A stretch of 64,000 bases of DNA, taken from an uncultured Nitrospiraceae bacterium (lineage in GTDB: Bacteria > Nitrospirota > Thermodesulfovibrionia > Thermodesulfovibrionales > Dissulfurispiraceae). The number at the start of each line of letters is the position of its first letter. Positions within the stretch are counted from its first letter, which is position 1. The notes under the pieces are model-generated. The model searched no databases. It saw nothing but the letters and a program-made list of their open reading frames with translations, and had not been told where the DNA came from. Below, one piece after another: positions 11,641-61,575 of the stretch. Location of the stretch: contig CAVPIW010000012.1 in the NCBI GenBank assembly GCA_963705105.1, positions 160,001-224,000 on the forward strand, in the 5' to 3' direction. A program made the translations under genes and the position numbers.

Positions 11641-11807
11641 CCGCAGGAAAGGCGTGCCGAAGCGCACTGAAAAACAGTGTCAGTGACAGTGTGAGTGTCA
11701 GTAAAGGTTCATTTTTTCAACAGTCGGTAAGGTGTCGCCGCAGCAAGGTTTTCGGCGCATTCACCCCAGCCCCGCCTTTCCGGAGACCCTATTGCAACGA
11801 TAAGGTT
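11641..11807 (-). repeat. Family A inverted-repeat element, full copy
   Basis: Reverse complement of ACCTTATCGTTGCAATA..GGAAAGGCGGGG..GCGCCGAAAACC..GACACT repeats. Confidence 0.85.
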
Positions 11808-11911
11808 CACTCTTCCAGGGAATGGCGTCAACTCCCGGGACAATGACGGCTGCAGTGGCGGCGCCGGGAGGAGGATAAGGTATAATTAAATCAGCGTTGT
11901 TCGGCTTCAGC

Positions 11912-11966
11912 GACTCCATGATCTCAATGACTTAATCGACTCAATCAACTTAATTACTTATTACTT
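11912..11966. repeat. Degenerate 8-9-nt tandem repeat (GACTYAATC)
   Basis: gactccat gatctcaat gacttaatc gactcaatc aacttaatt acttatt. Confidence 0.5.
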
Positions 11967-11972
11967 CGTATT

Positions 11973-12761
11973 ATGCAGATCGACGATCTCCGCACAATCG
12001 GCAAACGTCTCTTTTCGGCGATAGGGCAAACGCGCCTGTCGCCCTGCGATTCCGCGTCGATCGGCAAGGGCGCGGGGGGCGATAAGACGTTCCCTATCGA
12101 CAAGACGGCTGAAGACATCATCATCTCGTCCCTGCAAGACCTCGGTGAACCGCTCAATGTCATCTCCGAGGAGGCCGGCCTTCTCGACATGCGGGGAGGA
12201 GGGTACAGAGTCATCATCGACCCCATCGACGGCAGCAAGAATGCCATCAACGGGATACCCTTCTACTGCACGTCCATCGCCGTTGCCGGGGGCGCCGAAA
12301 TGGGGAGCGTTTTCCTCTCCTATGTCATCAACCTTCTCACGGGCGACGAGTTCTGGGCCGAGAGGGGAAAGGGGGCCTTCTTCGGCGGCAGGAGGATCAC
12401 GACGCAGCAGGATGACATCCTCCGTCTCGTCGCCTATGAAGCCCAGACACCGGGACGTGACATCCCCGTCATCATGCCGCTCCTTGGGGCGTCCCAAAGG
12501 ACGCGGTGCCTCGGCGCCACCGCCCTCGATCTGGCCTATGTGGCATACGGGGCCGTGAGCATCTTCATCGCCCCGGCCATGTCGAGGAGCTACGATTTTG
12601 CGGGCGGCTGGCTCCTCGTCAGAGAAGCCGGCGGCGTCTTCACGGACCTTGACGGCAACTCCCTGGAGCATCTCGAAATCAGCCTCGGCAGGAGCGCCCC
12701 TCTCCTTGCCTCGGGCAACGAGGCCCTTCACGACAGGGCCCTCCGCCTGCTCCATGCCTGA
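11973..12761 (+). CDS. Inositol monophosphatase / FBPase family protein
   Basis: SEEAG, IIDPIDGSKN and YDFAGG motifs. Confidence 0.9.
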   Translation: MQIDDLRTIGKRLFSAIGQTRLSPCDSASIGKGAGGDKTFPIDKTAEDIIISSLQDLGEPLNVISEEAGLLDMRGGGYRVIIDPIDGSKNAINGIPFYCTSIAVAGGAEMGSVFLSYVINLLTGDEFWAERGKGAFFGGRRITTQQDDILRLVAYEAQTPGRDIPVIMPLLGASQRTRCLGATALDLAYVAYGAVSIFIAPAMSRSYDFAGGWLLVREAGGVFTDLDGNSLEHLEISLGRSAPLLASGNEALHDRALRLLHA

Positions 12762-15378
12762 CACCATCCCCTCCATGGTGCTGAAGGCTGCGGCGTCCTT
12801 CGGAGACCGAACAGCCTTTCACTTCTTTGATGAAACCTGGAAGACCATGTCGTACGGTGAGCTCCTGGAACTCGTCCGTGCGGGCGCCGGATACCTGAAA
12901 TCCCGCGGAATCGTTAAGGGCGACCGGGTGGCGATCGTCGCTGAAAACAGGCCTGAATGGCCCGCGGCTTATCTCTCGATCGTTTTTTGCGGCGCCGTCG
13001 CCGTGCCGATCGACATTCAGCTCGGGCCGGACGACATCGGGAATCTCGTCAGGAATGCCGGGGTTGCATGCGTGATTCACAGCATAAAGACGGAAAAAAC
13101 AGTGCTCCGCTGCATCGAAGGGACGGAGATCATGGCGGTCGCCGTCGAAGCGATGAAGACAGGTGAGCCGCTTTCCCGGGGATATGAAGGGGCGGGAGAG
13201 ATTGAACCGAGTGACCTCGCCTCGATCATCTACACGTCGGGGACCACGGGCGTCCCCAAGGGCGTCATGCTCAGCCATGAGAACTTCTGTTCCGACGCGG
13301 CGGCCGTGCACGGGGCACACATCGTGTCCGAACATGACAATGTCCTGTCCGTGCTTCCTCTCCACCACACCTACCCATTCATGTGCACCTTTCTCGTCCC
13401 CCTGTCCATCGGCGCCTCCGTCACCTTCTCGCCCGGACTGAAGGCGGCCGATATCATCGCGGCAGTGCGGGAGACGGGAGTAACTGTCATCGTCGCCGTC
13501 CCGAGGCTGCTTGAGCTGATCAGGAACGGCGTCGTCGCGAAGATGAAGGAACTGGGCGTTATTTCCCGGCCTCTGATGGGCCTGATGCGTCTCTGCGGAG
13601 CGCTCAGGAGACAATACCACGTCAATGCGGGCAAGGCGATCTTCCGGTCAGTCCACAGCAACTTCAGGACCCTCCGGTTCTTCACGAGCGGCGGCGCCCG
13701 TCTCGATCCGGGGCTCATGACGGACCTCGAAGCCCTGGGTTTTACTATCCTTGAGGGATACGGTCTCACCGAGACGGCGCCGATCGTCACCTTCAACCCT
13801 CCCGAAAAAAGGGTGCCCGGATCGGCGGGGCAGCCCCTGCCGGGCGTGCAGATCGGCGTTGCCGATGACGGCGAGATCATGATCAAAGGCCCCATGGTGA
13901 CGAGCGGGTACTACCGGAACGAGAAGGCCACGGCGGGTACGTTCCGCGACGGCTGGTTCCTGACGGGCGATACGGGATACCTGGACGACAGGGGATATCT
14001 CTTCATTACGGGCCGGAAAAAGGAGGTCATCGTCCTCAGCACCGGGAAGAACGTCTATCCCGAAGACGTGGAGCGCGCCTATCTCGTCATCCCCCTCATC
14101 AAAGAGATCTGCGTGACCGTCCCTCCCCGGGGCGCGCCGGCCGATGCGCTCCATGCCGTCATCGTTCCGGACCTCGACTATGCGAGGAAATCCCACATCG
14201 GGAACATGGCCGAGACCCTCCGGTGGCAGATCAACGAGGTGAGCCAGGGGCTCCCGGAATACCAGCGGGTCCGGGGCTTCACGCTTCACGGCGAGCCTCT
14301 GCCGCGAACACCTCTGGGGAAGCTCAGGAGGTTTCTCGTGACGGCGATCCTCGAGGGCAAAGAGCAGGGGGCTCCCGAAAAGGGGGAGGACGGCTCGCTC
14401 CGTGAGGACGAGATCGGCAGGGGAGTCGTCTCGTGCATCATTTCCATCGTCGGTGACGAGAGGCCGGTTCATGGTTCGGACAACCTCGAGCTCGATCTCG
14501 GTTTCGACTCGCTTAGGCGGATAGAGTTCGTCTCAGCCGTCGAGAAGCGCTTCGGCATTTCCCTGCCCGACACATTCATGACCGAGGTCCAGACCGTCGG
14601 GGACGTGGTGACGAAGATCAGGGAATCGGGAGTCGAGGGTGGATCGGCACGCGACAGGGAGGCACGCGACTGGTCGGAGATCCTGCAGATCGAGCTGACC
14701 GAAGAGGATGCCCGGAAGGCCGGGTTTTCCCACGGCCCTCTCGAACTTGCCTGGCTGTCTGTCGTCTTTCCGCTCGTGCGGCTTTGCTTCCGGGCCTTCT
14801 TCAGACTCCGCGTGGAGGGCAAAGAGAACGTGCCGTCCTCGGGGCCCTTCATTTTTGCACCGAACCACCGGAGCTACCTCGACGGGTTCGTTGTCGGGTT
14901 CTCCTTTCCCTTCAGCACGTACAGGAACCTCTCCTTCCTCGGACTGCAGCAGTTTTTCCGCGGACGGACCGGCGCATGGATCGCGAGGATGAGCCATGTC
15001 ATCACCATCGATCCCGAGACCTACTTCATGCGCTCCCTCCAGTTGTCGGCCCATGTGCTCAGAAAGGGACGCTCCCTCTGCATCTTTCCCGAGGGGGGGC
15101 GGTCCTTCAGCGACGAAGTGCTGCCGTTCAAGAAGGGGATCGGCGTGCTCGCCGTCGAGCTGGACGTCGCGGTCATTCCCGTGTATCTCGAAGGGACCGG
15201 CGAGGCCCTGCCGCGGGGCGCCCGCTTCATCAGGTTGAAGCCCCTTCGTGTCATCATCGGAAAACCCCTTCGGATGCGCGACATCGACATGTCGGCAAGA
15301 CCCGGGGGTGTCGATGCCTATCAGTATTTCGCAGACACGCTGAGAGAGCGGGTCATCGCGCTGTCACAGCAACGGTGA
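12754..15378 (+). CDS. Long-chain acyl-CoA synthetase (AMP-binding) fused to an acyl carrier domain and a lysophospholipid acyltransferase domain
   Basis: YTSGTTGVPKG, GYGLTET, TGD; ACP LGFDSL; acyltransferase NHRSYLD and FPEGGRS; ATG 12754 overlaps the upstream gene. Confidence 0.92.
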   Translation: MPDTIPSMVLKAAASFGDRTAFHFFDETWKTMSYGELLELVRAGAGYLKSRGIVKGDRVAIVAENRPEWPAAYLSIVFCGAVAVPIDIQLGPDDIGNLVRNAGVACVIHSIKTEKTVLRCIEGTEIMAVAVEAMKTGEPLSRGYEGAGEIEPSDLASIIYTSGTTGVPKGVMLSHENFCSDAAAVHGAHIVSEHDNVLSVLPLHHTYPFMCTFLVPLSIGASVTFSPGLKAADIIAAVRETGVTVIVAVPRLLELIRNGVVAKMKELGVISRPLMGLMRLCGALRRQYHVNAGKAIFRSVHSNFRTLRFFTSGGARLDPGLMTDLEALGFTILEGYGLTETAPIVTFNPPEKRVPGSAGQPLPGVQIGVADDGEIMIKGPMVTSGYYRNEKATAGTFRDGWFLTGDTGYLDDRGYLFITGRKKEVIVLSTGKNVYPEDVERAYLVIPLIKEICVTVPPRGAPADALHAVIVPDLDYARKSHIGNMAETLRWQINEVSQGLPEYQRVRGFTLHGEPLPRTPLGKLRRFLVTAILEGKEQGAPEKGEDGSLREDEIGRGVVSCIISIVGDERPVHGSDNLELDLGFDSLRRIEFVSAVEKRFGISLPDTFMTEVQTVGDVVTKIRESGVEGGSARDREARDWSEILQIELTEEDARKAGFSHGPLELAWLSVVFPLVRLCFRAFFRLRVEGKENVPSSGPFIFAPNHRSYLDGFVVGFSFPFSTYRNLSFLGLQQFFRGRTGAWIARMSHVITIDPETYFMRSLQLSAHVLRKGRSLCIFPEGGRSFSDEVLPFKKGIGVLAVELDVAVIPVYLEGTGEALPRGARFIRLKPLRVIIGKPLRMRDIDMSARPGGVDAYQYFADTLRERVIALSQQR

Positions 15379-15404
15379 CGGTGATGAAGCGAATCGCGTC
15401 GGGA

Positions 15405-15447
15405 ATCCATTTGAAAAGAGAAAGATTCCGGACAAGCCGGAATGACA
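15405..15447. repeat. REP-like hairpin (GATTCCGGACAAGCCGGAATGAC)
   Basis: ATTCCGG-ACAAG-CCGGAAT stem-loop between convergent genes. Confidence 0.55.
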
Positions 15448-15598
15448 GAATCTTATACTGACCGTGGCTCTAACAATGAACCCATTAGTATCTCCCGGCA
15501 GCCGCACAGGGATATGGCGAGCCCGGTGAGCATGAACACACCCAGGATGACCCTGATCACCGTGACCATCACGAGGGCCGCCCCGGTCCGATGGATGC

Positions 15599-15931
15599 CT
15601 ATTTCACGTCCCGGAATTTCGCCTCGATCGCGCTGATGTCCTCGATGCGCACAAGGGCGTCATAGAAATCCCTGCCGGCGAGCTTTTCGATGTGGACGAG
15701 ACCGTTGCCGACGGACTTGACGTAGCCCTGGAACGTCTTCCCGGATCTCAGATGGACATGAACGTTCTTGCCCGTGTAGAACGTGAGATTATCCGCCAGT
15801 GATTCAGCGGTATTGAATTTTACTCCCTCCAAAGCAGTTGCATCTTTGGCCTGCGCCCCGGCAGGAAGCATTCCCCAGCTCATGACGACGGCCAATACCG
15901 CAGGCAGAAAAAGCCTGACACTCTTCTTCAT
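15599..15931 (-). CDS. Secreted hypothetical protein, possibly Sm/LSm-like beta-barrel
   Basis: Signal peptide (AQA cleavage); GKNVHVHLRSGKTFQGYVKSV; GAGGA RBS. Confidence 0.8.
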   Translation of the reverse strand: MKKSVRLFLPAVLAVVMSWGMLPAGAQAKDATALEGVKFNTAESLADNLTFYTGKNVHVHLRSGKTFQGYVKSVGNGLVHIEKLAGRDFYDALVRIEDISAIEAKFRDVK

Positions 15932-16094
15932 GGTTCATCTCCTCTTTGCCCGTGTTTCGTTTTTATTGTCAGTGTCTATCACTGCGAGACAGCGCCGTTA
16001 CCTGTCAACCTCAGCCGATCATGTTGCAGTCTGACTCGAATTGCAGCGGGTTGCCACGCTTCAGATCTTCTGTAGCTGCGGAAAACAGGCACAC

Positions 16095-16153
16095 CAGGGC
16101 TTTTCGGCGTATACGCCCCGCCTTTCCGGAGTGCTTATGCAATGATAAGGTTA
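16095..16153 (-). repeat. Family A half copy (left arm)
   Basis: TAACCTTATCATTGCATAAGCACTCCGGAAAGGCGGGGCGTATACGCCGAAAAGCC; overlaps the TAA stop of the adjacent gene. Confidence 0.8.
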
Positions 16154-16696
16154 CGGGGGCGGGGGTGACCCGGGGTAAGGCGAATACGAGGACGGCGGCG
16201 GTGCCCCGTAGTCAGGCGGCGGAGGGGGGGTCCTCTGGTAACGACGGGTCCGCTGTGTCATGCCGGGAATCTGGTTCCCCTTCGCATACATGCACTGCAG
16301 ATAGGCGATGTCATACCGCCGCTGCGCCTCCCACCCGTAGACCTGGCCTGCGCCGGCCCCGCTGGTCGCTCCGAAGAGGAGTCCCGTGCCGGCTCCGATG
16401 GCCGCACCGGTCCCGGTGTCGCCCGAAGCGGAACCGATGGCCGCCCCGAGGCCCGCTCCAATGATCGTGCCGATGACGGCCCCTGCGGCGGTGTTCTGAT
16501 TGATCGTATCCTGGGGGGATATCCCGATTTGCTGCGCCGCCCACTGCCTGCAGACGGCATCCTCTGCCCGGAATTGATCGAAGGGTTTATCAGGGGCCGG
16601 CAGCACCATAACGCTGGGTCCAGCGGGTACGGTGGCGCACCCCCCCATCGTCAGCAGCGCGACCAGAAGCAACAAGACTTTCCCTTGCTTCAACAT
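16151..16696 (-). CDS. Glycine-zipper lipoprotein
   Basis: Lipobox-like MGGC; GAVIGTIIGAGLGAAIG zipper; Pro-rich tail. Confidence 0.85.
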   Translation of the reverse strand: MLKQGKVLLLLVALLTMGGCATVPAGPSVMVLPAPDKPFDQFRAEDAVCRQWAAQQIGISPQDTINQNTAAGAVIGTIIGAGLGAAIGSASGDTGTGAAIGAGTGLLFGATSGAGAGQVYGWEAQRRYDIAYLQCMYAKGNQIPGMTQRTRRYQRTPPPPPDYGAPPPSSYSPYPGSPPPP

Positions 16697-16700
16697 TTTT

Positions 16701-17126
16701 TCACTCCTCCCAGTCCGGCGGCGGAGGAGGCGGAACGACTTTCATCCAGCCGCCGGGACAGCGGTTGACATAGGGATAATAAGCCCGGGCATCGGGGCAG
16801 TAATACCAGAACGTCTCTTCCTCGGCCTCGGGCTCCGGAGCCTGCTCCTCATAGCGCGGCAGGGGCTGCTCGACGACAGGTGGCCCCGGATAGTAGTAAG
16901 GATAGCCCTGCGCACCCCACCACCACGGTCCCCAGACACCCCAGCCCCATCCCGGCCCGAGCACGACACCACCGCTGAAGGTGAAATGTGACCCGTACGC
17001 GTCCACAAAACCGGCGCCTGTCAGAAGCAACGCCGCGATGAGAAGAAGAAGGAGAAGGCTCAGCCGGCCCGCGGCTTCTTTGCATCGTAATGAGGATGTA
17101 AGGAGAGGATGAATATGCATACACAT
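16701..17126 (-). CDS. Pro/Trp/Tyr-rich secreted or membrane hypothetical protein
   Basis: Hydrophobic N-terminus; WYYCPD..AYYPYVNRCPGGW motif; start uncertain. Confidence 0.75.
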   Translation of the reverse strand: MCMHIHPLLTSSLRCKEAAGRLSLLLLLLIAALLLTGAGFVDAYGSHFTFSGGVVLGPGWGWGVWGPWWWGAQGYPYYYPGPPVVEQPLPRYEEQAPEPEAEEETFWYYCPDARAYYPYVNRCPGGWMKVVPPPPPPDWEE

Positions 17127-17374
17127 ATTTTATCACGATTTCATTTCAGATCCCACACTGTCGCACAAGCCTGGTCAATTTGACAGGACACCCGGAGAGA
17201 AGTAAAGGATCGTGCTCGTATTGAGATTCTCCCTCTCCCGTGATATTATCGAATTATACTGAAAGAGCGGTTTCTGCCGGCTGCAGCCATCGGTGCTGAC
17301 GCCGGAGCATCTCATTTTCTCTCCATTCACCCCGTGCGGGCCGGTGCATACCGGCCGAAAGCAGGAGGCTTACC

Positions 17375-18184
17375 ATGGATACGACAACTCTTCTTGCAAG
17401 CCTTAACGCCATGTTGATCAGCATCGGCTGGAAGCTTCTCGGCGCCCTGGTGCTGTGGGTCGCCGGCCGCATGCTGATCCGGTTCACGATGCGCCTGCTG
17501 GGCGGAGGAATGCGTGCCAGGGGCATCGAGGCCACAATCATCCGTTACGTGCAGAACACGGTCAACGTGCTGCTGACGATCATCCTGGTGATCGCCATAC
17601 TCGAGGTGTTCGGAGTCCAGACCACCACGTTCGCCGCCCTGCTTGCCGGTGCGGGCCTGGCCGTGGGGGCAGCCTGGAGCGGCCTGCTCTCCAACTTCGC
17701 CGCAGGCGCTTTCCTGGTCATCCTGCGCCCCTTCAAAGTGGGAGACTTCGTCACCGCAGGAGGAATCACCGGGACGGTGGAGGAAATCGGGTTGTTCGTC
17801 AGCACCATCAACACGCCCGACAACATCCGTACCTATATCGGGAACAGCAAGATTCTCGGCGACAACATCCAGAACTTCACAGCCAATCCTTACCGGCGCG
17901 TGGACATCACGGCCCAGGTGGCCCATTCCATGGATCCCGTTCAGGCTATGGAAAAGATCGCCGAAAGAGTGAAAAAGATCCCCAACGTTCTGACCGAGCC
18001 GGCGCCGGACCTGAAGATTTTGGCTCACACGCCGGCGGGATGCGTTCTCGCGGTGCGGCCCTATTGCAACAACAGCAACTACTGGCAGGTCTACTTCGAC
18101 ACGCAGCGCGCAATCCGGGAAGCCCTCGGTGCAGCCGGATACCCTGCGCCCGAGTTCGTCGTCGAGCTGAACGCCATGGGGTAA
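17375..18184 (+). CDS. mscS: Small-conductance mechanosensitive channel (MscS family)
   Basis: LLAGAGLAVG..LSNFAAG..RPFKVGD..GTVEEIG. Confidence 0.93.
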   Translation: MDTTTLLASLNAMLISIGWKLLGALVLWVAGRMLIRFTMRLLGGGMRARGIEATIIRYVQNTVNVLLTIILVIAILEVFGVQTTTFAALLAGAGLAVGAAWSGLLSNFAAGAFLVILRPFKVGDFVTAGGITGTVEEIGLFVSTINTPDNIRTYIGNSKILGDNIQNFTANPYRRVDITAQVAHSMDPVQAMEKIAERVKKIPNVLTEPAPDLKILAHTPAGCVLAVRPYCNNSNYWQVYFDTQRAIREALGAAGYPAPEFVVELNAMG

Positions 18185-18431
18185 CCTTATTGTTGCAGTA
18201 GGATTTCCGGAAAGGCGGGGTGTGGGCGCCGAAAACCCTGCTGCGGCGACACCTTTGCCTTCCCATGAAGACGTTTTCAGGCAAAGGGCTGAAAAAAGTG
18301 ACCCTTTTACGGACACTCACACTGACACTGTTTTTCAGAGCGTTTCGCCCCGCCTTTTCATGCAACAGAAAGATTAACCTTGCCGTTGCATAAGCCCCGC
18401 CTTTCCCGGGAGTGTGTTGCAACGATAAGGT
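18183..18431 (+). repeat. Family A full copy (18183-18375) followed directly by a mini copy (18376-18431)
   Basis: AACCTTATTGTTGCA...TGCAACAGAAAGATT then AACCTTGCCGTTGCA...TTGCAACGATAAGGT. Confidence 0.9.
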
Positions 18432-18475
18432 AAACAATCATGCTCGCTGCAAAATATTTGGACAGGGGTGAAACT

Positions 18476-21049: not shown

Positions 21050-21190
21050 GTTGTCCTCCCTATTAAAGAATTCGCAAGCCTCGCCCCTTTCACGCCGATG
21101 CATCCGGGTTTCGGTCTTCCTGGCGCTGTGCATCGGCGCAGGCGGGAACTTCCGGTCTCTCTCCAGAGCATCCCTCAGAATATCACATTC

Positions 21191-21388
21191 ACATTATCGC
21201 TGCAATACACTCCCGGGAAAGGCGGGGCTGGGGTGAATGCGCCGAAAACCCTGCTGCGGCGACACCTTTGCCTTCCCATGAAGACGTTTTCAGGCAAAAG
21301 GCTGAAAAAGGTGACCCTTTTACGGACACTCACAATGACACTGTTTTTCAGAGCGCTTCGCCCCGCCTTTCCATGCAACAGGAAGGTT
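21191..21388 (+). repeat. Family A full copy
   Basis: Closely similar to the 18183 and 30666 copies. Confidence 0.9.
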
Positions 21389-21908: not shown

Positions 21909-21913
21909 GAGGT

Positions 21914-24109: not shown

Positions 24110-24137
24110 CCCGTCCCGCAAAACGAAAAACGATACT

Positions 24138-24350
24138 CAAGACAGTCTCACGCAAAGCCGCAAAGAGCGCAAAGAAAGACAAGACAGTGTGAGTGTCAGT
24201 GTCTGTGAGCGGATCGTCGAATGCCGACAAACGATCACCCTTTGCCGTGTGGACAGACGACAAATGACCGTCAGGCAACAGGCGCTTAACACCTTGAGAA
24301 GTCTCATCATCGCATTGGAAAGGCTTTGAACCATGTTGCCTTCCCGCCGG
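24138..24350 (+). repeat. Composite repeat: C module (24138-24180), GTGTCA hexamers, and partial family B element (~24236-24350)
   Basis: 43-bp match (1 mismatch) to 51764-51806; CCGTCAGGCAACAG..TCATCATCGCATTGGAAAGGCTTTGAACC matches 41948-42012. Confidence 0.85.
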
Positions 24351-24395
24351 CAGCTTCGCTGTGAGATGGCAAGAGGGTCTCCGACTGACGGCTGT

Positions 24396-27072: not shown

Positions 27073-27449
27073 CGCTTTTCCTCCCAGATAAAGCGTTTTC
27101 ACGCACCAAACTCGGTTGCCGTCCTGACCGAATCGCCGGCGTCCAAAATAATCTGACACGACGATAGGGCATGATTTCTTTGCAAAATGTACCACCTTTG
27201 CGCTTGTGCATGCCTTGTTATGAAGATACAGGGTATCGCACGTTCACCTGTGCGGCTCCCCGACCGCTTCCGCCTCCGACTCCCGCCGCCGTGAAGATTA
27301 CCAGTGAAATCTTCTTCAGAAACCAAACTCCATCCTCGCTTTCAAGGTTTTGCCGTCAGCAATTCCGGACGCCGGCATGACCGGATATAGGTCTTCTTTC
27401 CAGCGCCACCATGTATAATTATACAGAATGCGAGGCGACAGGAGGTATC

Positions 27450-27995: not shown

Positions 27996-28063
27996 ACCCT
28001 TCAATTGCCTGAAAAGGCCGGGCGAAGCGCATGAAAGCATTGCTGACGGCGACGATGTGAATG
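27993..28063 (-). repeat. Family A half copy (right arm, subtype 2)
   Basis: TGAACCCTTCAATTGCCTGAAAAGGCCGGGCGAAGCGC..TGCTGACGGCGACGATG resembles 47681-47750; begins on the upstream stop codon. Confidence 0.7.
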
Positions 28064-28471: not shown

Positions 28472-28484
28472 TTGACCACACAAT

Positions 28485-30665: not shown

Positions 30666-30864
30666 AAACCTTATCGTTGCAATACACTTCCGGGAAAGGC
30701 GGGGCGTATGCGCCGAAAACCTTGATGCGGCCACACCTTTGCCTTCCCATGAAGACGTTTTCAGGCAAACGGCTGAAAAAGGTGACCCTTTTACGGACAC
30801 TCACACTGACACTGACACTGTTTTCAGCGCGTTTCGCCACGCCTTTCCATGCAACTACAATGTA
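30666..30864 (+). repeat. Family A full copy (reference copy)
   Basis: AAACCTTATCGTTGCAATACACTTCCGGGAAAGGCGGGGCG...CGCCACGCCTTTCCATGCAAC. Confidence 0.9.
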
Positions 30865-39737: not shown

Positions 39738-39806
39738 GAGTGTCGGTGAAAGGAATGCATCTCAAATCTTTCTCGCGCAAAGCCGCAAAGAGCGCAGAGA
39801 AAGAAC
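39738..39806 (+). repeat. C-module repeat
   Basis: GAGTGTCGGTGAAAGGAA...TCTCGCGCAAAGCCGCAAAGAGCGCAGAGAAAG. Confidence 0.75.
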
Positions 39807-41730: not shown

Positions 41731-41853
41731 TTGCTGTGCTTAATCTTGCATGAAGAAGGCGGGGTGAACGCGCCACTTATAAACAGTAGACAGAATACAG
41801 AAGGCATTAGACAATAGACAGCAGGCAAAGACAGAAACCGGACGACAAACACA

Positions 41854-42031
41854 CCGACGGGGAGGCTGATGTGGCGAAAAGCCTTTCCTCTAAGATACCT
41901 TGTTGATCCCCAGACCACACTTTGCCGTGTCGATTGTAGACAAAAGCCCGTCAGGCAACAGACTCTTAACACCTGGAGATGTCTCATCATCGCATTGGAA
42001 AGGCTTTGAACCATATCTGCCTCCCCGTCGG
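41854..42031 (+). repeat. Family B inverted-repeat element, full copy
   Basis: 35-bp imperfect TIR CCGACGGGGAGGCTGATGTGGCGAAAAGCCTTTCC / GGAAAGGCTTTGAACCATATCTGCCTCCCCGTCGG; preceded by AGACAG(Y)-type heptamer repeats 41781-41836. Confidence 0.88.
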
Positions 42032-42041
42032 AAACATTCCT

Positions 42042-42084
42042 TCAGCAAGGCTTTTCGGCGCCTTCGCCCCGCCTTTCCGGAAGG
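42042..42084 (-). repeat. Family A arm fragment
   Basis: CAGCAAGGCTTTTCGGCGCCTTCGCCCCGCCTTTCCGGA. Confidence 0.75.
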
Positions 42085-42448: not shown

Positions 42449-42508
42449 TTACCTTATCGTTGCAATACACTTCCGGGAAAGGCGGGGCGTATGCGCCGAA
42501 AACCTTGC
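42449..42508 (+). repeat. Family A half copy (left arm)
   Basis: Identical to the 30668-30724 arm. Confidence 0.88.
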
Positions 42509-45766: not shown

Positions 45767-45822
45767 CGTTTGGCGCATACACCCCGCCTTTCCCCCGAAA
45801 GCGTATGCAACGATAAGGTAAA
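45767..45822 (-). repeat. Family A half copy (left arm)
   Basis: GGCGCATACACCCCGCCTTTCC...TGCAACGATAAGGTAAA. Confidence 0.8.
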
Positions 45823-47679: not shown

Positions 47680-47896
47680 TTACCTTTCAGTCGCGTGAAA
47701 AGGCTGGGCGAAACGCCTCAAAGCCTTGCTGAAGGCGACGATGAGCATTGTTCGGTTCGTGTTTCAGGATTCAACTGTCCCTGTGATCGACCTCGGCTCG
47801 AAACGGTATCTTCTGTGAGGTTAATGGTGTCGCCGCATCAAGGTTTTCGGCGCATACGCCCCGCCTTCCCGGATGGCGTATGCAACGATACGGTTT
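47680..47896 (-). repeat. Family A full copy (subtype 2 interior)
   Basis: Both arms present; AAAGCCTTGCTGAAGGCGACGATGAGCATTG interior. Confidence 0.85.
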
Positions 47897-51670: not shown

Positions 51671-51715
51671 CTCTTCATTGTATAGGCGGATGTCTGCGGA
51701 TGACAACACCATAAT

Positions 51716-52016
51716 AGTGTCAGTGTCAGTGTGAGTGTCAGTGTCAGTGAAAGGAAAGCGCCGCAAGACGGTCTCACGCAAAGCCGCAAAGAGCGCAAAG
51801 AAAGACGAAAGCACATTATTTCAGAAGAAACAGACCGTTTCGTTATTGCATTTGCCGTTCTTGGCGGACTTGGCGTGAGATAGGGTCGTTTCTTGTTCGT
51901 AAAAGAGAAAAATGTATTCCCGCGCAAAGCCGCAAAAAATGTAAAGAAGAGACAAGAGAGTGCGAGTGTGAGTGCCGGTGAAAGGAAATTGTCTGAGTCC
52001 TCAGTCCTGAGTCCTT
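51716..52016. repeat. Repeat cluster: GTGTCA hexamer array, C modules (51764-51806, inverted 51851-51880, 51920-51987), TCCTGAG heptamers
   Basis: Directly visible tandem and inverted units. Confidence 0.8.
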
Positions 52017-52110: not shown

Positions 52111-53130
<1,020 letters not shown>

Positions 53131-53175
53131 GGGCTGAGCGGCCACTGACAACGACATTGTCTCCCCTGTCCTGAC

Positions 53176-56081: not shown

Positions 56082-56133
56082 GCCTCCCGGGCGCTTTGCG
56101 CCGCCCGTCTCGCGCGTAAAATATGAACATGCC

Positions 56134-57132
56134 ATGAGCTACATATCCGTCATAGGCGGAGGCAGCTGGGGGACCACCCTTGCTGCGCTCCTTGCGGACA
56201 AGGGATACGATGTCACCCTGTGGACCCTTGAGCCGGAAGTTGTGGGGCAGATCAACGACGAGGGTGTCAACGCCGCCTATCTTCCCGGCGTCGTCCTCCC
56301 CGCTTCCTTGCGGGCGACGAACGATTTCAGGGAAGCGGCGGAAAAGGCGCGCTACGTCCTGAACGCCGTGCCCACCCAGTACATCCGGACAGTTTTCAGC
56401 GGCCTCAGCCCGCACCTCACGAATGAGGCGATCATCGTCAGCGCCTCCAAGGGGATCGAGATCGGCACGCTCCTCACGCCGTCGCGCATCCTCGGGGAAA
56501 CGACGGGCAGGCCTGTTTCCGTCCTCTCGGGACCGAGCTTCGCCCGGGAAGTGATCGAAAAGCTGCCGACAGGCGTCACCCTTGCGACGCACGACAAGAT
56601 GACGGGCCTCATCCTGCAGGAGGTCTTCAACACAGACTACTTCAGGGTCTATACCCACGACGATGTCATCGGCGTCGAGATCGGCGGCGCCCTGAAAAAT
56701 GTCATCGCCATCGCCTCGGGCATCTCCGACGGCATGGGGCTGGGGTACAACGCGAGGGCGACCCTCATCACCCGGGGCCTGGCCGAGATCAGGCGACTGG
56801 GCGCGGCGCTGCAGGCGCGGGAGGTGACGTTTTCGGGATTGAGCGGCATCGGCGACCTCGTTCTCACCTGCACGGCGGGGCTTTCGAGGAACTACACGGT
56901 AGGTCACCGGCTCGGCCAGGGACAGACTCTGCAGGAAATCACGGGGAGCATGAAGCAGGTCGCCGAGGGGGTCACGACGACTCATTCGGCCTTCGAGCTC
57001 TCGCGAAAGCACGGTATCGAGATGCCGATCACCGAGCAAGTCTATTTCGCCCTCTATGAGGGGAAGTCTCCCCGTGAGGCCGTGACGGACCTCATGAACC
57101 GCTCCCTGAAATCGGAGTTTCATGGATACTGA
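56134..57132 (+). CDS. gpsA: NAD(P)H-dependent glycerol-3-phosphate dehydrogenase
   Basis: GGGSWGT, LSGPSFA, GALKNVIA, GDLVLTC...SRN. Confidence 0.97.
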   Translation: MSYISVIGGGSWGTTLAALLADKGYDVTLWTLEPEVVGQINDEGVNAAYLPGVVLPASLRATNDFREAAEKARYVLNAVPTQYIRTVFSGLSPHLTNEAIIVSASKGIEIGTLLTPSRILGETTGRPVSVLSGPSFAREVIEKLPTGVTLATHDKMTGLILQEVFNTDYFRVYTHDDVIGVEIGGALKNVIAIASGISDGMGLGYNARATLITRGLAEIRRLGAALQAREVTFSGLSGIGDLVLTCTAGLSRNYTVGHRLGQGQTLQEITGSMKQVAEGVTTTHSAFELSRKHGIEMPITEQVYFALYEGKSPREAVTDLMNRSLKSEFHGY

Positions 57133-57880
57133 GGTGCTGAAGGAACTGCTCGCCGACGTCCGGGCGGGCAAGGTCGCCGTAGAGGAGGCACTGGAGGCCC
57201 TGAAAGGGTTTCCCTTCGAAGACCTCGCCTTTGCAAAGGTCGACCACCACAGGACCCTCCGCACGGGGATCCCCGAGGTCATCTATGCACGGGGGAAGAC
57301 GACGGAGGAGGTCGTGTCGATCGCCCGGTCGATGCTCGACCGGAGCGGCAGATTTCTTATAACCCGCGCATCGGAGGATGTGTTCCGCGCCCTCGGCATC
57401 GAAGAAGCCCGGTTTCATCAGGCATCAGGCGTCATCTCCTGCGGGAGCGGCAGGGCGAAGAGGGGGTTCGTGCTTGTCATCTCTGCCGGGACGTCGGACA
57501 TCCCCGTCGCGGAAGAGGCCGAGGTGACGGCATCGTTCCTCGGGAGCAAAACGGAGCGCCTCTATGATGTCGGTGTGGCCGGCATCCACCGGCTCTTCAG
57601 CCATCAGCGCCTCTTCGGAAAGGCACGGGTCATCGTCGTCGTCGCCGGAATGGAGGGAGCCCTGCCCTCCGTCGTGGCGAGCGTCACGGACAGGCCCGTC
57701 ATCGCCGTACCCACGTCGGTGGGCTACGGCACGAGCTTCGGCGGCCTCACCGCCCTTTTTGCGATGCTCAACTCCTGCGTTCCGGGCATCGCCGTCGTCA
57801 ACATCGACAACGGGTTCGGGGCGGGATGCCTCGCCCACAGGATCAACCTGATGGGCGGAGGGCAAAAAAAAGAGGGATGA
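57122..57880 (+). CDS. larB: Nickel-pincer cofactor biosynthesis protein LarB
   Basis: AGTSDIPVAEEA, DVGVAGIHRL, AGMEGALPSV, VNIDNGFGA. Confidence 0.95.
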   Translation: MDTEVLKELLADVRAGKVAVEEALEALKGFPFEDLAFAKVDHHRTLRTGIPEVIYARGKTTEEVVSIARSMLDRSGRFLITRASEDVFRALGIEEARFHQASGVISCGSGRAKRGFVLVISAGTSDIPVAEEAEVTASFLGSKTERLYDVGVAGIHRLFSHQRLFGKARVIVVVAGMEGALPSVVASVTDRPVIAVPTSVGYGTSFGGLTALFAMLNSCVPGIAVVNIDNGFGAGCLAHRINLMGGGQKKEG

Positions 57881-57923
57881 AACGTCTTCATCCCTTTCAA
57901 CCTCTATCCGTTGAACGTACAGT

Positions 57924-58130
57924 TCAGCAGGCAGGCCCTCAGGCCGCCTGCCCTCCTCCGGAAAAGGGCGTCGACTGGTTCTGGAAGGACAAGCAGCTGA
58001 ATGTCGAGAACCTCTTCCTCACCTTCGGCGCCCCGCATTCCGGGCATGTGACCTGCTTTTCCCCTTGGAGACTCTGGTAGACCGTAAAGACCTCGTCACA
58101 CCGCGTGCAGTCGTACTCGTAAATCGGCAT
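57924..58130 (-). CDS. FmdB-family zinc-ribbon protein; stop at 57939 or Sec read-through to 57924
   Basis: MPIYEYDCTRC...CPECGA; UGA at 57939-57941 followed by in-frame GPAC-UGA. Confidence 0.85.
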
Positions 58131-58197
58131 CCCTCTACCCCCCGGTTGATCTGCAGCCATCGTCCGCGATGACCGCGTGCTTTGTAATTGAAGATTT

Positions 58198-58396
58198 TAA
58201 CCTTTCCATTGTATGAAAAGGCGGGACAAAGTGCTTCAAAACAGTGTCAGTGATAGTATGAGTGTCAGTAAAAGGTTCACTTTTTTCAGCCCTGAGCCTG
58301 AATTGATCCGTATGGGAAGGCATAGGTTTCGCAGGACCAAGGCTTTTCGGCATCTTCGCCCCGCCTTTTCGGATGTCCTATTGCAACGATAACGTT
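58198..58396 (-). repeat. Family A full copy
   Basis: Both arms plus GTGTCA interior. Confidence 0.85.
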
Positions 58397-58423
58397 GATT
58401 CTGGCACGGCAAAAGGCCTTTCG

Positions 58424-58885
58424 TCAATCGGCGGGAGTCCGCCGCAGGTCGAGCATCATGATCAGGCCATCCTCGGGAGGCGCTGCATAGTAGTTCTTCC
58501 TGATGCCGACGGTCCTGAACCCGAACCGCTCATAGAGCACCCGGGCTGCCCGGTTCGAGGCCCTGACCTCGAGATAGAGGGAACTGTCTTCCGCAGACGT
58601 CAGTTCTGCGATCATCTCTTCGAGGAGTGTCGCTGCGACACCGCGGGTTCTGCAGAGCGGGTGGACGGCAAGGTTCATGAGATGACATTCATCGACGATC
58701 CGCCGGATGCAGATATACCCCTTCACCGAGCCTTCCGCTTCGGCGACCCATGTCAGGGCATGGCGGTGGTAGATCTCCTTGAAGAAGGACGTCTCGGACC
58801 AGGGGGTGCTGAAGGAGGCCCGCTCGATCCTGACTATCTCGGGTATGTCATCGGGGAGCATTTCCCGTACGATCAGCCGGTCCAT
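58424..58885 (-). CDS. rimI: Ribosomal-protein-alanine N-acetyltransferase
   Basis: NLAVHP..R.RG, LEVRASN..A..LYERFGF..VGIRKNYY. Confidence 0.95.
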   Translation of the reverse strand: MDRLIVREMLPDDIPEIVRIERASFSTPWSETSFFKEIYHRHALTWVAEAEGSVKGYICIRRIVDECHLMNLAVHPLCRTRGVAATLLEEMIAELTSAEDSSLYLEVRASNRAARVLYERFGFRTVGIRKNYYAAPPEDGLIMMLDLRRTPAD

Positions 58886-58896
58886 CCCGTCGCCTT

Positions 58897-59105
58897 CACC
58901 TTATCGTTGCAATACGTTCTGAGGAAAGGCGGGGTGTATGCGCCGAAAACCTTGGTGCGGCGACACCGTAATCGTCACGAAAGACAACGGTTCAAGACAA
59001 AAGTCGATCACACAAAAAGCGGACTTCTGAAAGAAGAACCTGACAATGCTCATCGTAGCCTTCAGCAAGGCTTTGAGGCGCTTCGCCCCGCAACTGAAAG
59101 GTTCA
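58897..59105 (+). repeat. Family A full copy (subtype 2 interior)
   Basis: ACCTTATCGTTGCAATAC...GCAACTGAAAGGTTCA between tsaB and rimI. Confidence 0.85.
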
Positions 59106-59106
59106 T

Positions 59107-59793
59107 TCACTGTTTGACGCCCGCCTTGATCTCCGCCTCGGACCTTCTGATGTAGAAGGGCGAGAGGGTGACGGGGTTTTCATAGTCGTTCTGCAACGCC
59201 TTTTTGCGGCAGAGGAGCGCCACGGCGGCAGGGGAGGGGACCATATGATGGAAGTGGCCGAAAATCGCGCGGTCTCCCAGGCGTTCCAGGGTCTGACGAT
59301 ACCGGAGCGCCCCTTCACCGAGAAAGACGGTCCTTTCGCTCACCTGCGGGATGAGCGCTTCCGCCGGAAGGGCGCATTCAGTCATGCGTCGCCTGAACCC
59401 GTCTCCGTTCCATTCGAAGACGGCCGCGTAGACCTCTCCTCTGCGGGCGTCCAGGAGCGGGCAGACGTGGTGGATACAGAAGGGCAGGTGCCAGGCAAAG
59501 GCCTCCAGTGTCGGGACGGCGACGACCGGTTTTCCCGTTGCGAAGGCGAGCCCTTTGACGGTGCTCAGACCGACCCTGAGGCCCGTGAAGGAACCGGGGC
59601 CGATGGAGATGCCGAAGATGTCGATGTCGCCGATGACGAGTGACGAGCGTTTCATGATGTGGTCGATCTCGCCCAGGAGTCGCTCGGAATGGGTGACACG
59701 GACATTGAGTCTCGACTCGGCGATGAGGCTGTCGTCGACCGTGACGGCGAGGCCGCCCAGCACGGTCGATGTCTCGACGGCAAGGATCTTCAC
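59107..59793 (-). CDS. tsaB: tRNA t6A biosynthesis protein TsaB
   Basis: ILAVETS, HSERLL, GPGSFTGLRVG, DARRGEVY. Confidence 0.96.
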   Translation of the reverse strand: MKILAVETSTVLGGLAVTVDDSLIAESRLNVRVTHSERLLGEIDHIMKRSSLVIGDIDIFGISIGPGSFTGLRVGLSTVKGLAFATGKPVVAVPTLEAFAWHLPFCIHHVCPLLDARRGEVYAAVFEWNGDGFRRRMTECALPAEALIPQVSERTVFLGEGALRYRQTLERLGDRAIFGHFHHMVPSPAAVALLCRKKALQNDYENPVTLSPFYIRRSEAEIKAGVKQ

Positions 59794-59821
59794 AGCCCCT
59801 CCCTCTGCACTATCGCTGCTG

Positions 59822-59991
59822 CGGGAAGGCAGATATGGCTCACAGTCTTTCCAATGCGATGATGAGGCATCTCAAGGTGTTCAGGGCCTGTTGCCTGACG
59901 GGCTTCTCGTATCTGTAGACACGCCAAAGGGTGGTCCGGGGATACACAGGGTATCTTAGCGGAAAGGCTTTTCGCCACATCAGACTTCCCG
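59822..59991 (-). repeat. Family B full copy
   Basis: Reverse-complement match to 41854-42031 including both TIRs. Confidence 0.88.
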
Positions 59992-60079
59992 GTTGAGCGT
60001 TCATGCCCTGGGTCCGATTTTTGACTGCCGACTCTCCCTGTATGACTGCCGTCTGTTGGCATCTTTCTCCTGCCGTTTC

Positions 60080-61306
60080 CTATGGTTTCCGCAATGTCAC
60101 GGTTGAAGCCGACCGGTGAAAGGTGCGGCCGAAGATCAGCGTCCCCATGATGCAGATGACCGAGAAGACCTGGAGAGACGCGATCGTGCCGAACCGGTCC
60201 GCCGCCAGTCCGATGATCGAATTTCCGAGGGGGGCGAACCCCAGGAACACGAGCGTGAAGACGCTCATCACCCGTCCCCTCAGGGCGTCGGGGGCGGAGT
60301 GCTGGATGAAGCTGTTGCTCATGGCAAGGAAACTGACGATGCCCCAACCGGCAAAGAAGGCGATAGCGAGGGAGAGGGAAAAGTTCCGGGAATAGGCGAT
60401 CCCGAGTATCGCCAGGGAGAAAACGGTCCCCGAGAAGGGGATGAAGAGCTCCCGGCGCGGGATCTCGCCCTTGTATGCGATGTGGAAGGCCGCCAGGAAT
60501 GACCCCAGCCCCGAGGCGGCGATGAGGAAGCTCAGTCCCCGGGCGCCGACGTCGAGCACCTCTCCTGCAATGATGGGCAGAAGGGTAATGTAGGGGATGC
60601 CGAAGAGACTGTACAGGGAGATGATCACCATCAGCCAGAAGACGGGCCTGTCGTTGATCATGTAACGCAGACCGTCGGCGATGTCCGTCCCGATGCCCTG
60701 TCCGTCCGCGGATTTCTCGCCTCTTGCGCTGATCCTCGTGAGAGCGAAGAGCACGGCGGCGAAACTCAGGGCATTGAGATAAAAACAGAGGGGCAGGCCG
60801 ACGCCGGCGATGACGAGACCGGCGATCATGGGCCCGATGATCCTCGCCCCGTTGAAGGCCATGGAATTGAGGGCGATGGCGTTCGTCAGGGAATCCCTTC
60901 CGGCGACTTCACCGATGAAGGCCTGTCGCGTCGGAATATCGAAGGCGTTCACCGTGCCGAGGAAGGCGGCCGTGATGCCCACGTGCCAGATCCTGATCAT
61001 GCCGGAATCGGTGAGTATGCCGAGAAAAAGGGCGGGAATTATCGAGAGGAACTGGGTGATGATGAGGATGTTCCGTTTCGGGTAGCGGTCGGCGACGATG
61101 CCGCCGATGAGGGTGAAAAGGAGGATGGGCAGGGACGAGAGGGACGCGATGATGCCGAGCCAGAGGGGCGATTTCGTCAGGGAATAAACGAGCCAACTCT
61201 GCGCAACGGAATGCATCCATGTCCCGGAGAGGGAGATGATCTGACCGAGCCAGAAGAGCCTGAAATCCTTGACATAGAGAGCTGAAAACCGGTTCCCTTT
61301 TTCCAT
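60080..61306 (-). CDS. MFS transporter
   Basis: FRLFWLGQIISLSGTWM, GGIVADRYPKR, LRGRVMSV; 12 TM segments. Confidence 0.93.
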   Translation of the reverse strand: MEKGNRFSALYVKDFRLFWLGQIISLSGTWMHSVAQSWLVYSLTKSPLWLGIIASLSSLPILLFTLIGGIVADRYPKRNILIITQFLSIIPALFLGILTDSGMIRIWHVGITAAFLGTVNAFDIPTRQAFIGEVAGRDSLTNAIALNSMAFNGARIIGPMIAGLVIAGVGLPLCFYLNALSFAAVLFALTRISARGEKSADGQGIGTDIADGLRYMINDRPVFWLMVIISLYSLFGIPYITLLPIIAGEVLDVGARGLSFLIAASGLGSFLAAFHIAYKGEIPRRELFIPFSGTVFSLAILGIAYSRNFSLSLAIAFFAGWGIVSFLAMSNSFIQHSAPDALRGRVMSVFTLVFLGFAPLGNSIIGLAADRFGTIASLQVFSVICIMGTLIFGRTFHRSASTVTLRKP

Positions 61307-61364
61307 GTGGTATGATATACAGTCAGGCTTCGAAGGGTTGCGGATCCGTAAAATACCTGATTAG

Positions 61365-61575
61365 TACCTTGCAATTGCATGCAAAGGCGGAACAAAGTGC
61401 CTCAAAGCCTTGCTGATAGCGAGGAGGATCATTTTAAACTGGATATTCGGGATCCCATCTTGTGTGTCATTAACCGCCGGCCTGACATAATCCTCACGGG
61501 AAGGCAGAGGTTTCGCAGCACCAAGGATTTTCGGCATCTTCGCCCCGCCTTTCCGGAGGTACTATTGCGGTAGTA
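61365..61575 (-). repeat. Family A full copy, diverged
   Basis: TACCTTGCAATTGCATGCAAAGGCGG...TTTTCGGCATCTTCGCCCCGCCTTTCCGG. Confidence 0.75.

Follow-up and report, generated by a model that had tools for sequence, protein, structure and literature searches.

A repeat of about 200 bp recurs between the genes of the window (the whole 64-kb stretch of DNA analysed here, from an uncultured member of the Nitrospirota), and an integron integrase is encoded close by. This raises the question of what kind of element the repeat is and how it spreads. The first-pass annotation had proposed an undescribed non-autonomous mobile element or a structured RNA, with ends closer to attC or REP hairpins than to a classical MITE. 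The repeat proves to be genuine: Family A, as we term it here, comprises ~500 copies of a short, non-coding mobile DNA element (a MITE). It is no new kind of recombination system, and it has nothing to do with the integron.

Abundance and boundaries of the repeat

We counted 514 two-ended copies of Family A genome-wide, together with ~218 single ends. Profile HMMs of the ends gave 593 (L model) and 614 (R model) matches across the genome at E<=1e-3, and 0 and 0 on the reversed genome at the same threshold. The 525 end pairs shorter than 450 bp cover 116,761 bp, or 2.8% of the genome, over which the family is evenly spread. Both ends carry the terminal inverted repeat CCTT-N3-GTTGCA, and the sequence logos show a sharp boundary. 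The element runs from CC to GG and is flanked by a 4-bp TNNA duplication, so that the ends first drawn were misplaced. Only 5 of 502 copies overlap a predicted gene (from our own gene caller) by more than 40 bp, placing the family between genes. Orientation relative to the flanking genes is unbiased (159 versus 179), and in intervals between convergent genes 33 of 64 copies lie no more than 10 bp from a gene end, often just behind the stop codon. The copies appear to be decaying, with a median nearest-neighbour identity of 92%. A family that makes up ~2.8% of the DNA and is almost wholly intergenic shapes the regulatory space of this uncultured lineage.

Copies in the window

The profile HMMs find 22 end matches in the window (E 0.005 to 1e-18), and one or both ends are present at all 14 places listed at first. 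Strands are given with + for copies that have the long (IRR-like) end first. The canonical full copy (47683..47893, -, 211 bp) has an exact duplication, TTTA/TTTA. Three full copies on the + strand have a hexamer (GACACT) interior, at 18185..18373 (189 bp, flanks GTAA/TTAA), 21192..21386 (195 bp, exact duplication TTCA/TTCA) and 30669..30862 (194 bp, exact duplication TAAA/TAAA). The full copy at 58201..58394 (-, 194 bp, flanks TTAA/TTGA) is a mosaic of a cluster-2 left arm and a hexamer right arm. Two others have suffered deletions, of ~11 bp in the short arm at 58899..59101 (+, 203 bp, exact duplication TTCA/TTCA) and of ~8 bp in the long terminus at 61367..61570 (-, 204 bp, cluster-2 interior, exact 5-bp duplication TAGTA/TAGTA). 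The decayed full copy at 11631..11805 (-, 175 bp) retains an intact IRR-like long end at 11805 and a degenerate IRL-like end, with flanks CTCA/TTCA that match at 3/4 positions, and the mini copy at 18378..18430 (-, 53 bp, flanks TTAA/TAAA) is an internal-deletion derivative. The mini copy shares a TTAA flank with the adjacent copy at 18185..18373, where the left duplication and the stop codon of the MscS gene upstream overlap.

Single long (IRR-like) ends lie at 16098..16150 (-, right flank TTAC), 42452..42508 (+, left flank TTTA) and 45769..45818 (-, right flank TAAA), and a single short (IRL-like) end with a CAAAGC-type inner arm at 27997..28057 (-, left flank TGAA). The supposed half copy at 42042 belongs to a decayed long-type copy of ~340 bp (41738..42084, ends approximate, strand unassigned), of which it forms the right end; the long-type copy has degenerate termini and matches the cluster-4 consensus over 271 bp at 86%.

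Target duplications and empty sites

The first-pass annotation saw no consistent target duplication, and this proved wrong. Of 253 well-anchored copies, 128 have an exact 4-bp duplication, against a shuffled mean of 15.8 and maximum of 24, and stricter anchoring gives 108/179 and 64/99. Among duplication lengths only k=4 and, weakly, k=5 (6 versus 0.3) are enriched, and non-palindromic 4-mer flanks are direct in 98 cases and inverted in 2 (n=206). The target consensus is TNNA, mostly TWWA, and the duplication is 4 bp, rarely 5 bp. Within the window, five of nine short two-ended copies have an exact duplication (four of 4 bp, one of 5 bp) and the other four match at 3/4 positions.

Filled sites could also be compared with empty ones, as the earlier annotation had suggested, by removing the element and one 4-bp copy before alignment. 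Distant homologues spanning the junction were available for 23 of the 146 copies with exact duplications, and 19 of these 23 align without an indel. A joint that skips exactly one copy was not seen among the 15 of 115 joints listed for the contigs of four sequencing runs.

Integron and REP sites

One idea is that the repeats are attC-like sites scattered through the genome and recombined by the integron integrase nearby. The integrase is genuine (an IntI at 10280-11593; TIGR02249, 432 bits), and a pair of inverted boxes around an unpaired centre can be drawn from the ends. The attC core-site consensus is RYYYAAC...GTTRRRY; RYYYAAC occurs in 5/253 copies, however, and GTTRRRY in 1/253. The AAC...GTT ends noted at first take in bases of the duplication, and both are present in only 32/253 copies. 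The 4-bp duplication is direct and differs from copy to copy, the elements have no orientation relative to upstream genes, and the attC-like sites of the cassette array itself look different. Nor is there enrichment near the integrase: the window holds 13 elements against a mean of 11.5 per 64 kb, an average density, and the cassette array at 1-10.2 kb contains no end match, making the integrase an incidental neighbour. We give this reading practically no chance.

A palindrome of the REP/BIME type, spread on single-stranded DNA by an HUH (RAYT) enzyme, would account for repeats that are abundant, intergenic, palindromic and often placed just after stop codons, as among the 33 of 64 convergent-gene copies above, and GTAG-type palindromes do occur within longer subfamilies. 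REP/RAYT systems are characterised by insertion without target duplication and by a short palindrome anchored at GTAG/CGTC, and HUH enzymes are not known to make target duplications. Family A, in contrast, has target duplications and DDE-type termini common to IS1380, and its GTAG modules are inserts confined to clusters 5 and 7; this origin is as good as excluded. The attC and REP readings were both rejected on the duplications, the core-site counts and gene orientation, and with IS1380 ends and a target duplication the likeness to such sites over a classical MITE fails.

Origin of the termini

The 13-14-bp termini of Family A match the left and right ends of one subgroup of the IS1380 family (NF033539, above cut-off), the long end corresponding to the right-end signature of the subgroup and the short end to its left-end signature. 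At related transposase loci, CC-N3-YAGTTGCA lies upstream in 65/71 cases (1 in the reversed control) and CC-N2-A-N-YGTTGCA downstream in 74/75. This asymmetry is that of the short and long MITE ends, which we count in favour of an autonomous partner. In genome G545, ten autonomous copies of 1,518 bp have the same termini, 8/10 with an exact duplication, and their transposase scores 227 bits on NF033539 (cut-off 180) and also matches PF13701. Genome G360 combines such a transposase (234 bits, 64% identity to that of G545) with 97 MITE-end matches. Among single metagenomic IS copies the duplication is exact in 15/49, and 10 more match at 3/4 positions; collapsed multi-copy assemblies may lie behind this low rate.

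The absence of a cognate transposase, first noted for the window, extends to the whole genome. It contains no PF13701, only weak cross-hits of NF033539 to other families and of PF13843 (none above cut-off), and no transposase or remnant by tblastn (best E 1.3). No copy of Family A carries an IS1380 transposase ORF. None of the 15 PF01609 loci in the genome is bounded by Family A ends, except for an IS1634 nested in one copy; no multi-copy repeat of at least 450 bp in the genome is an IS with such ends; and from none of six terminal motifs lacking the inner box was a transposase reached. Longer, gene-carrying copies, which the first-pass annotation had suggested looking for, were not found among ten long end pairs (726-2,612 bp) inspected for passenger or transposase genes; these contain host genes or a nested IS.

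Family A is very probably a non-autonomous MITE that the DDE transposase of this IS1380 subgroup moves in trans. We infer mobilisation from the shared ends because the genome itself holds neither a cognate transposase nor a remnant of one. The initial proposal of an undescribed non-autonomous mobile element is supported. As the first-pass annotation had itself set out for an ordinary MITE, the ends match a known IS family, IS1380, with a standard target duplication. The subgroup transposase would have bound the 13-14-bp termini and cut both ends, and in several bursts the element would have entered TNNA sites between genes. The autonomous partner may since have been lost, or may not have been assembled, leaving the present copies to decay and to exchange interiors through recombination or gene conversion. 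Only about half of the copies have exact duplications, which weighs against this account. A large orphan repeat family can now be linked to one defined subgroup of transposases, whose elements occur in related genomes as multi-copy, near-identical partners.

Inner architecture

Family A is an IS-derived MITE of an ordinary kind; its odd features are the internal hairpin and the fixed length. The one-sided bulge first described in the arms is real. The spacer from the terminal 13-mer to an inner box is 11-12 nt at one end (237/241 measured) and 2 nt at the other (182/196); the bulge lies outside the transposase site and corresponds to an offset in a MITE-specific inner inverted repeat, which sits one helical turn (10-11 bp) deeper at one end. 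Autonomous elements lack this inner repeat (10.5 of 20 positions versus 9.8 shuffled) and have no inner-box match, and no direct parent of the Family A interior was found among them. Because the autonomous elements do not have it, we abandoned an initial reading of the inner box as a subterminal transposase site like those of piggyBac.

The two interior types do interchange, as first suggested: three inner left arms and two inner right arms occur in all six combinations among 306 canonical copies, and one nested subfamily with identical flanks includes both types. No clean inversion of interior against termini was found among classified pairs in the genome, against the 306 canonical copies, and unusual end pairings comprise 6 long-long and 4 short-short copies. 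Length is conserved, the mode being 211-213 bp in 9/9 young groups (at least 3 copies, at least 96% identical; two groups of nested subfamilies set aside). Exceptions to this rule are pairs of 203, 218, 265, 281 and 366 bp with duplications, and other genomes depart from it as well (mostly 57-92 bp in G360; 47, 235 and 275 bp in G045).

An AAA(G/A)CCTT motif (AAAGCCTT motifs), 38 and 47-49 bp from the two ends, resembles an IHF site. Scored at 7/9 bases of the IHF consensus, the resemblance holds for ~44% of short arms (138-139/316) and only 41/348 long arms, and the short-arm motif is missing from the largest cluster (127 copies of 188-200 bp). The genome contains only an IHF-alpha-like gene and an HU gene. 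A length of ~212 bp together with IHF-like motifs would keep the two ends phased, allowing a short element to bend and pair them. Inner arms that became single-stranded would base-pair, and a change in one arm would then be copied to the other (by template switching or by repair of the hairpin) or be preserved by selection. We give about even chances to this account of the inner architecture, in which the ends are phased by length and IHF-like motif and the arms pair when single-stranded.

Relatives in other genomes

The genome-specific long-end pattern occurs in 1 of 390 genomes of the class, our own, and nowhere in viral or metagenome contigs; BLAST with one copy likewise matched 1 of 41 genomes, again our own. 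Only a relaxed terminal pattern revealed relatives, and it matched 55 of 401 genomes, many by single matches that may be due to chance. In five other genomes, seven representative MITEs measure 206-216 bp, with an inner offset of 10-12 nt in six and 6 in one. Their own arms match at 13-18/20 positions, versus 6-13 for arms of other families; each family has its own inner sequence, and complementarity and offset are kept. The long arm lies on the left-type terminus in G070, G313, G281 and G360 and on the right-type terminus in G000 and G004.

It is conceivable, though improbable, that a class-wide lineage of IS1380-type MITEs in Nitrospirota evolved a module that its autonomous partners lack, namely a one-turn-offset inner hairpin and phased IHF-like sites at a fixed ~212 bp, and that one strand must fold during movement. 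If true, transposition in the IS1380 family would include a single-stranded step, by copy-out or with the help of a hairpin, or short elements would have an end-pairing route.

Covariation of the inner arms

The earlier annotation had the arms pairing with each other, which is supported in part, for here the inner box and the termini part ways. In the inner 10-bp box, 29 copy-private changes are matched in both arms of the same copy, against a shuffled mean of 1.7 (maximum 8-9); with a stricter filter for privacy the figures are 21 and 1.0. The termini, with 5 matched changes versus 4.1 expected, show no covariation, and a second stem with few changes has 0 versus 0.13.

One reading is that the elements are MITEs by origin but that the host now retains many of them, either as structured RNA or as single-strand hairpins (for mRNA stability or RNase III-type processing), selection for pairing producing the matched changes. 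In the 25 copies concerned, fixed arm differences nearby have not been homogenised, which argues against long conversion tracts, and canonical consensuses are predicted to fold at z -3 to -8. Divergence is lower inside the element than at its ends: private changes per site amount to 0.010 for the inner motif and 0.023-0.034 for the box, against 0.047-0.065 for the termini, rates that are biased by the anchoring thresholds. Unmatched changes favour G-U pairs in the long-arm-first strand (70 versus 39, p=0.006); we relied on such private changes, since the raw asymmetry of 175 versus 53 is inflated by subfamily-fixed variants. This lean, however, is independent of the direction of host transcription (Fisher p=0.86) and falls to p=0.03-0.08 after filtering. 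Element orientation is unbiased, the 82 copies located between divergent genes include 8 matched changes as well, and the second stem contributes none. The Rfam search suggested at the outset returned no RNA family for the element, the window yielding tRNA only and the 47683 copy nothing at E<=1. Template switching alone can create compensatory changes, according to the available part of PMC8794818. We regard host retention as possible but doubtful, and the cause of the inner-box covariation may be mutational.

Alternatively, the inner stem might be required for transposition, with the long-arm-first strand becoming single-stranded (as in copy-out mechanisms) and the hairpin drawing both termini together. 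The strand lean is intrinsic to the element, each related family keeps complementarity and offset around an inner sequence of its own, and the switching of the long arm between terminus types suggests a module conserved apart from the termini. Yet autonomous elements move without the inner repeat, the termini, which would also need to pair, do not covary, and no circle junction appears among the joints listed. Such a requirement seems quite unlikely. The data are compatible with both copying between arms and selection, and the ~500 diverged copies form a natural data set for weighing selection against template switching as sources of compensatory change in bacterial hairpins.

Comparison with known elements

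Members of the IS1380 family such as ISPa33a, ISPsp9, IS1247 and ISEcp1 have the same short imperfect terminal repeats and 4-5-bp duplication as Family A. In the portions of the sources available, ISPa33a is given IR 16/16 and DR 4 and ISPsp9 DR 5 (PMC4133298), and IS1247 IR 16/13 and DR 5 (PMC3281130); the accessible parts of PMC4549789 and PMC3542288 add nothing on IS1380 ends. Family A differs in having no transposase gene, a length of ~212 bp and an inner inverted repeat absent from the autonomous subgroup, and its ten long end pairs reveal no capture of adjacent genes. The subgroup is also distant from plasmid-borne members of the family, with no tblastn match at E<=1e-30 among 72,556 plasmids. 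In the literature searched, which did not extend to ISfinder, we found no IS1380-derived MITE, and IS1380 has 0 matches in the bacterial MITE reviews PMC10969869 and PMC2229807.

In the eukaryotic piggyBac elements, subterminal repeats are unequally spaced at the two ends and are part of the autonomous element. The piggyBac elements resemble Family A in their C-rich 5' ends and TTAA-type 4-bp duplication, and IS1380 transposases have served as their outgroup (PMC10813416, in the part available). They differ in being eukaryotic and autonomous, whereas the inner repeats of Family A are MITE-specific.

Correia/NEMIS, ERIC, QMITE and Chunjie elements resemble Family A in being shorter than 500 bp, intergenic and present in hundreds of copies, with IS-derived termini, decaying duplications and stem-loops. 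They derive from other transposase families and mostly have TA duplications. According to the available text of PMC10969869 and PMC2229807, ERIC reaches 711 copies in Photorhabdus, and Correia elements have IHF sites and undergo RNase III processing; we met no one-turn offset of the inner arms for bacterial MITEs in that text. A Tn3-ended system, as far as PMC4133298 is available, likewise combines a conserved size (262 bp) with divergent cores, similar predicted folds and mosaic derivatives. It provides a precedent for fixed length and makes that of Family A less novel; it differs in its 38-bp Tn3 ends, its 5-6-bp duplication and its usual occurrence as a single copy.

Copy number and distribution of Family A

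The Family A copies listed in the first-pass annotation were all found in the window, and the family is dispersed through the 4.23-Mb source genome (G000). Profile HMMs of the element ends gave 593 matches with one end model and 614 with the other (E ≤ 1e-3, whole genome), and no match at that threshold in the reversed genome used as a control. After removal of overlaps, we counted 544 inward-facing pairs, 514 of which join a long end (IRR-like, wide spacer) to a short end (IRL-like, narrow spacer), as well as 218 unpaired single ends genome-wide. Pairs shorter than 450 bp (n = 525) account for 116,761 bp of sequence (2.8% of the genome); excerpts of one review likewise put ERIC at several hundred copies per genome (PMC10969869). 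Copies are intergenic, with only 5 of 502 overlapping a gene in our own, approximate gene calls, and their orientation relative to flanking genes is unbiased (159 vs 179). Median identity to the nearest neighbour is 92%, and 30 of 476 copies reach at least 99%.

Ends and target duplication

End logos show a sharp onset of conservation, with a weak T-W-W-A just outside each end, and the boundaries were taken as CC...GG for all duplication counts. The ends previously described as AAC...GTT are partly made of target-duplication bases. Among 253 well-anchored copies, 128 are bordered by identical 4-bp flanks, compared with a shuffle mean of 15.8 and a maximum of 24; the figures are 108 of 179 and then 64 of 99 under stricter anchoring, and 157 of 502 over all copies, against 15.9 expected. 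Of 137 copies with TNNA on both sides, 108 have the same two middle bases in each flank (17.8 expected); non-palindromic flanks form a direct repeat in 98 of 206 and an inverted one in 2. Within the window, exact duplications occur at 5 of 9 short two-ended copies. Some copies lie inside other repeats. A distant homologue spanning the junction was available for 23 of 146 exact-duplication copies, and in 19 of these 23 the empty-site alignment was free of indels once the element and one 4-bp copy were taken out. On the testable criteria, Family A behaves as a MITE.

A probable IS1380-type partner

No IS1380 or piggyBac-type gene or remnant was found in the source genome, and Family A ends do not flank any other transposase locus examined there (for piggyBac and gene-capture context, see excerpts of PMC10813416 and PMC9330008). 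A relaxed terminal pattern has matches in 55 of 401 genomes of the phylum, the source genome included; high counts came from several of them, with 97 in G360, 45 in G045, 44 in G070, 12 in G281, 10 in G313 and 9 in G545; reversed controls had 0-2 matches per genome. The G545 matches delimit a 1,518-bp element present in ten copies, eight with exact duplication, whose protein is an IS1380 transposase (NF033539, 227 bits against a cut-off of 180; PF13701). Family A shares its termini with this IS1380 subgroup: among 99 related transposase loci scanned for the terminal motifs, the left-end motif is present at 65 of 71 with sufficient upstream DNA and the right-end motif at 74 of 75 with sufficient downstream DNA. 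At the three variable positions of the terminus, the left and right ends of the IS also differ in the way that the short and long ends of the MITE do. Counting against the link, only 15 of 49 two-ended single IS copies have an exact duplication; 10 more match at 3 of 4 positions, and the flanks are mostly TNNA-like. Published IS1380 members, in the available extracts of PMC4133298 and PMC3281130, have repeats of 16-21 bp and duplications of 4-5 bp.

Related MITEs occur in G070, G313, G281, G360 and G004. Seven representatives, picked as full-length, measure 206-216 bp, and six of them have a 10-12-nt offset. The AAAGCCTT...GCGA motif is preserved, while the inner arm sequence is private to each family and complementary inside it. 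Exceptions are the G360 copies, mostly 57-92 bp, and those of G045, at 47, 235 or 275 bp. The autonomous elements lack an inner repeat, having just a weak AAA at positions 38-40 of the left end.

Transposase and MITEs coexist in G360. There, the IS1380 element L226 (G360:C48:1-3149) carries one and the same single-base change at both termini relative to the G360 MITEs, and its left/right variable bases agree with theirs; L226 and these MITEs are the best candidate pair for trans-mobilisation. Another copy of the subgroup, L308, on a metagenome contig, has an exact duplication and, at 2,414 bp, exceeds its relatives in length by about 800 bp and therefore contains an internal insert.

We consider it very probable, on the joint evidence, that a DDE transposase of the IS1380 subgroup moved the MITE in trans into TNNA sites in past bursts, and that, after the partner was lost, the copies would have decayed and recombined among themselves. 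An IS1380-derived MITE was not found in the largely open-access literature searched, and two MITE reviews (PMC10969869, PMC2229807) make no mention of IS1380.

Anatomy and mosaic interiors

Each end begins with a 13-14-bp terminus, followed by a spacer of 11-12 nt at the long end and 2 nt at the short end, and then by a G-rich box common to both arms; further in comes an AAA(G/A)CCTT motif, 47-49 and 38 bp from the two ends. Interiors are mosaic, falling into nine clusters of at least five copies, and all six left-arm/right-arm combinations are present. A nested subfamily (23 copies inside another repeat) has both interior types within identical flanks, and interior exchange therefore happens after insertion. 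Three unrelated interior clusters each measure 211-213 bp, which is also the modal length in 9 of 9 young groups (at least three copies; two groups of the nested subfamily excluded). TIMEs similarly keep a fixed length despite divergent cores, according to extracts of PMC4133298. Length exceptions are pairs of 203, 218, 265, 281 and 366 bp; clusters 5 and 7 (e.g. C12:344263), at about 265-281 bp, have GTAG-type REP-like palindromes as inserts. The 63 bp by which 275 exceeds 212 equal six turns of the helix, perhaps by coincidence. We see an even chance that the length and the offset help the ends to pair via helical phasing. Compared with the IHF consensus, the IHF-like motif match is partial, and the genome has one IHF-alpha-like gene and one HU gene.

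Covariation of the inner arms

The inner arms covary: 70 cases of one non-consensus base occurring in both arms of the inner box were counted, spread over 64 of 496 copies, against 7.1 in shuffles. Private matched changes, those absent from the five nearest neighbours, number 29 in the inner box against 1.7 expected, compared with 5 against 4.1 in the termini (7 against 4.2 in another count) and 0 against 0.13 in the second stem. The inner-box changes imply a single-stranded state of some kind in which the two inner arms pair. Template switching or repair is about evenly balanced against the other sources taken together; template switching can yield compensatory changes without selection (extracts of PMC8794818). 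Nearby differences between the arms show no homogenisation. Host selection on an RNA stem is an ordinary reading with precedent in Correia and ERIC, for which it has been proposed (excerpts of PMC10969869 and PMC2229807), and we regard it as possible, if less probable. The strand with the long arm first has a modest G-U lean (p = 0.006; 0.03-0.08 after filters), which does not correspond to host transcription. That the changes arise from a single-strand transposition step appears improbable.

The neighbouring integron and other repeats

The integrase adjoining a Family A copy is a true IntI (TIGR02249, 432 bits; window 10280-11593). The first-pass annotation considered this neighbourhood notable, but it is a matter of chance: at 13 elements, the window has an average density (genome mean 11.5 per 64 kb), and no copy falls within the cassette array (window 1-10.2 kb). 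By the criteria of those classes, Family A is neither an attC site nor a REP sequence. Window 1-11593 is an integron comprising IntI and a divergent AT-rich cassette array with attC-like sites (e.g. 194-274, 5858-5951 and 8075-8137). Decayed IS copies interrupt the array at about 1030-5750, and G000:C5:226229-227774 holds an almost identical integrase region.

A second repeat, which has inverted ends of its own, occurs at window 27140-27345, there without a Family A insert, and at 23 loci elsewhere (e.g. G000:C5:15547). One Family A copy entered this repeat and then travelled as a passenger, giving 23 copies whose flanks are identical. At window 24233-24360 and 59814-60028, the interior sequence known from the long (340-370 bp) subfamily appears without Family A ends, and may be a captured separate repeat or copies that lost their ends. 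Other dispersed repeats lie at window 24114-24215, 39739-39804 and 51711-51988; these are GACACT/AGTGTC hexamer runs and a CGCAAAGCCGCAAAGAGCGCAAAG motif, each of which is found outside Family A too. A short palindromic repeat of GTCATTCCGG type, at window 15395-15450, belongs to a family that hosts Family A insertions elsewhere in the genome.

Nested in Family A copies (G000:C10:240798-243139 and G000:C6:829965-831626) are a 1.95-kb element, encoding a 565-aa transposase with a PF01609 match that is IS1634-like by eye, and an IS3-like element. At G000:C5:155795-157462, a protein resembling, by eye, a nitrogenase alpha subunit is encoded between two Family A ends, which are probably two independent insertions.
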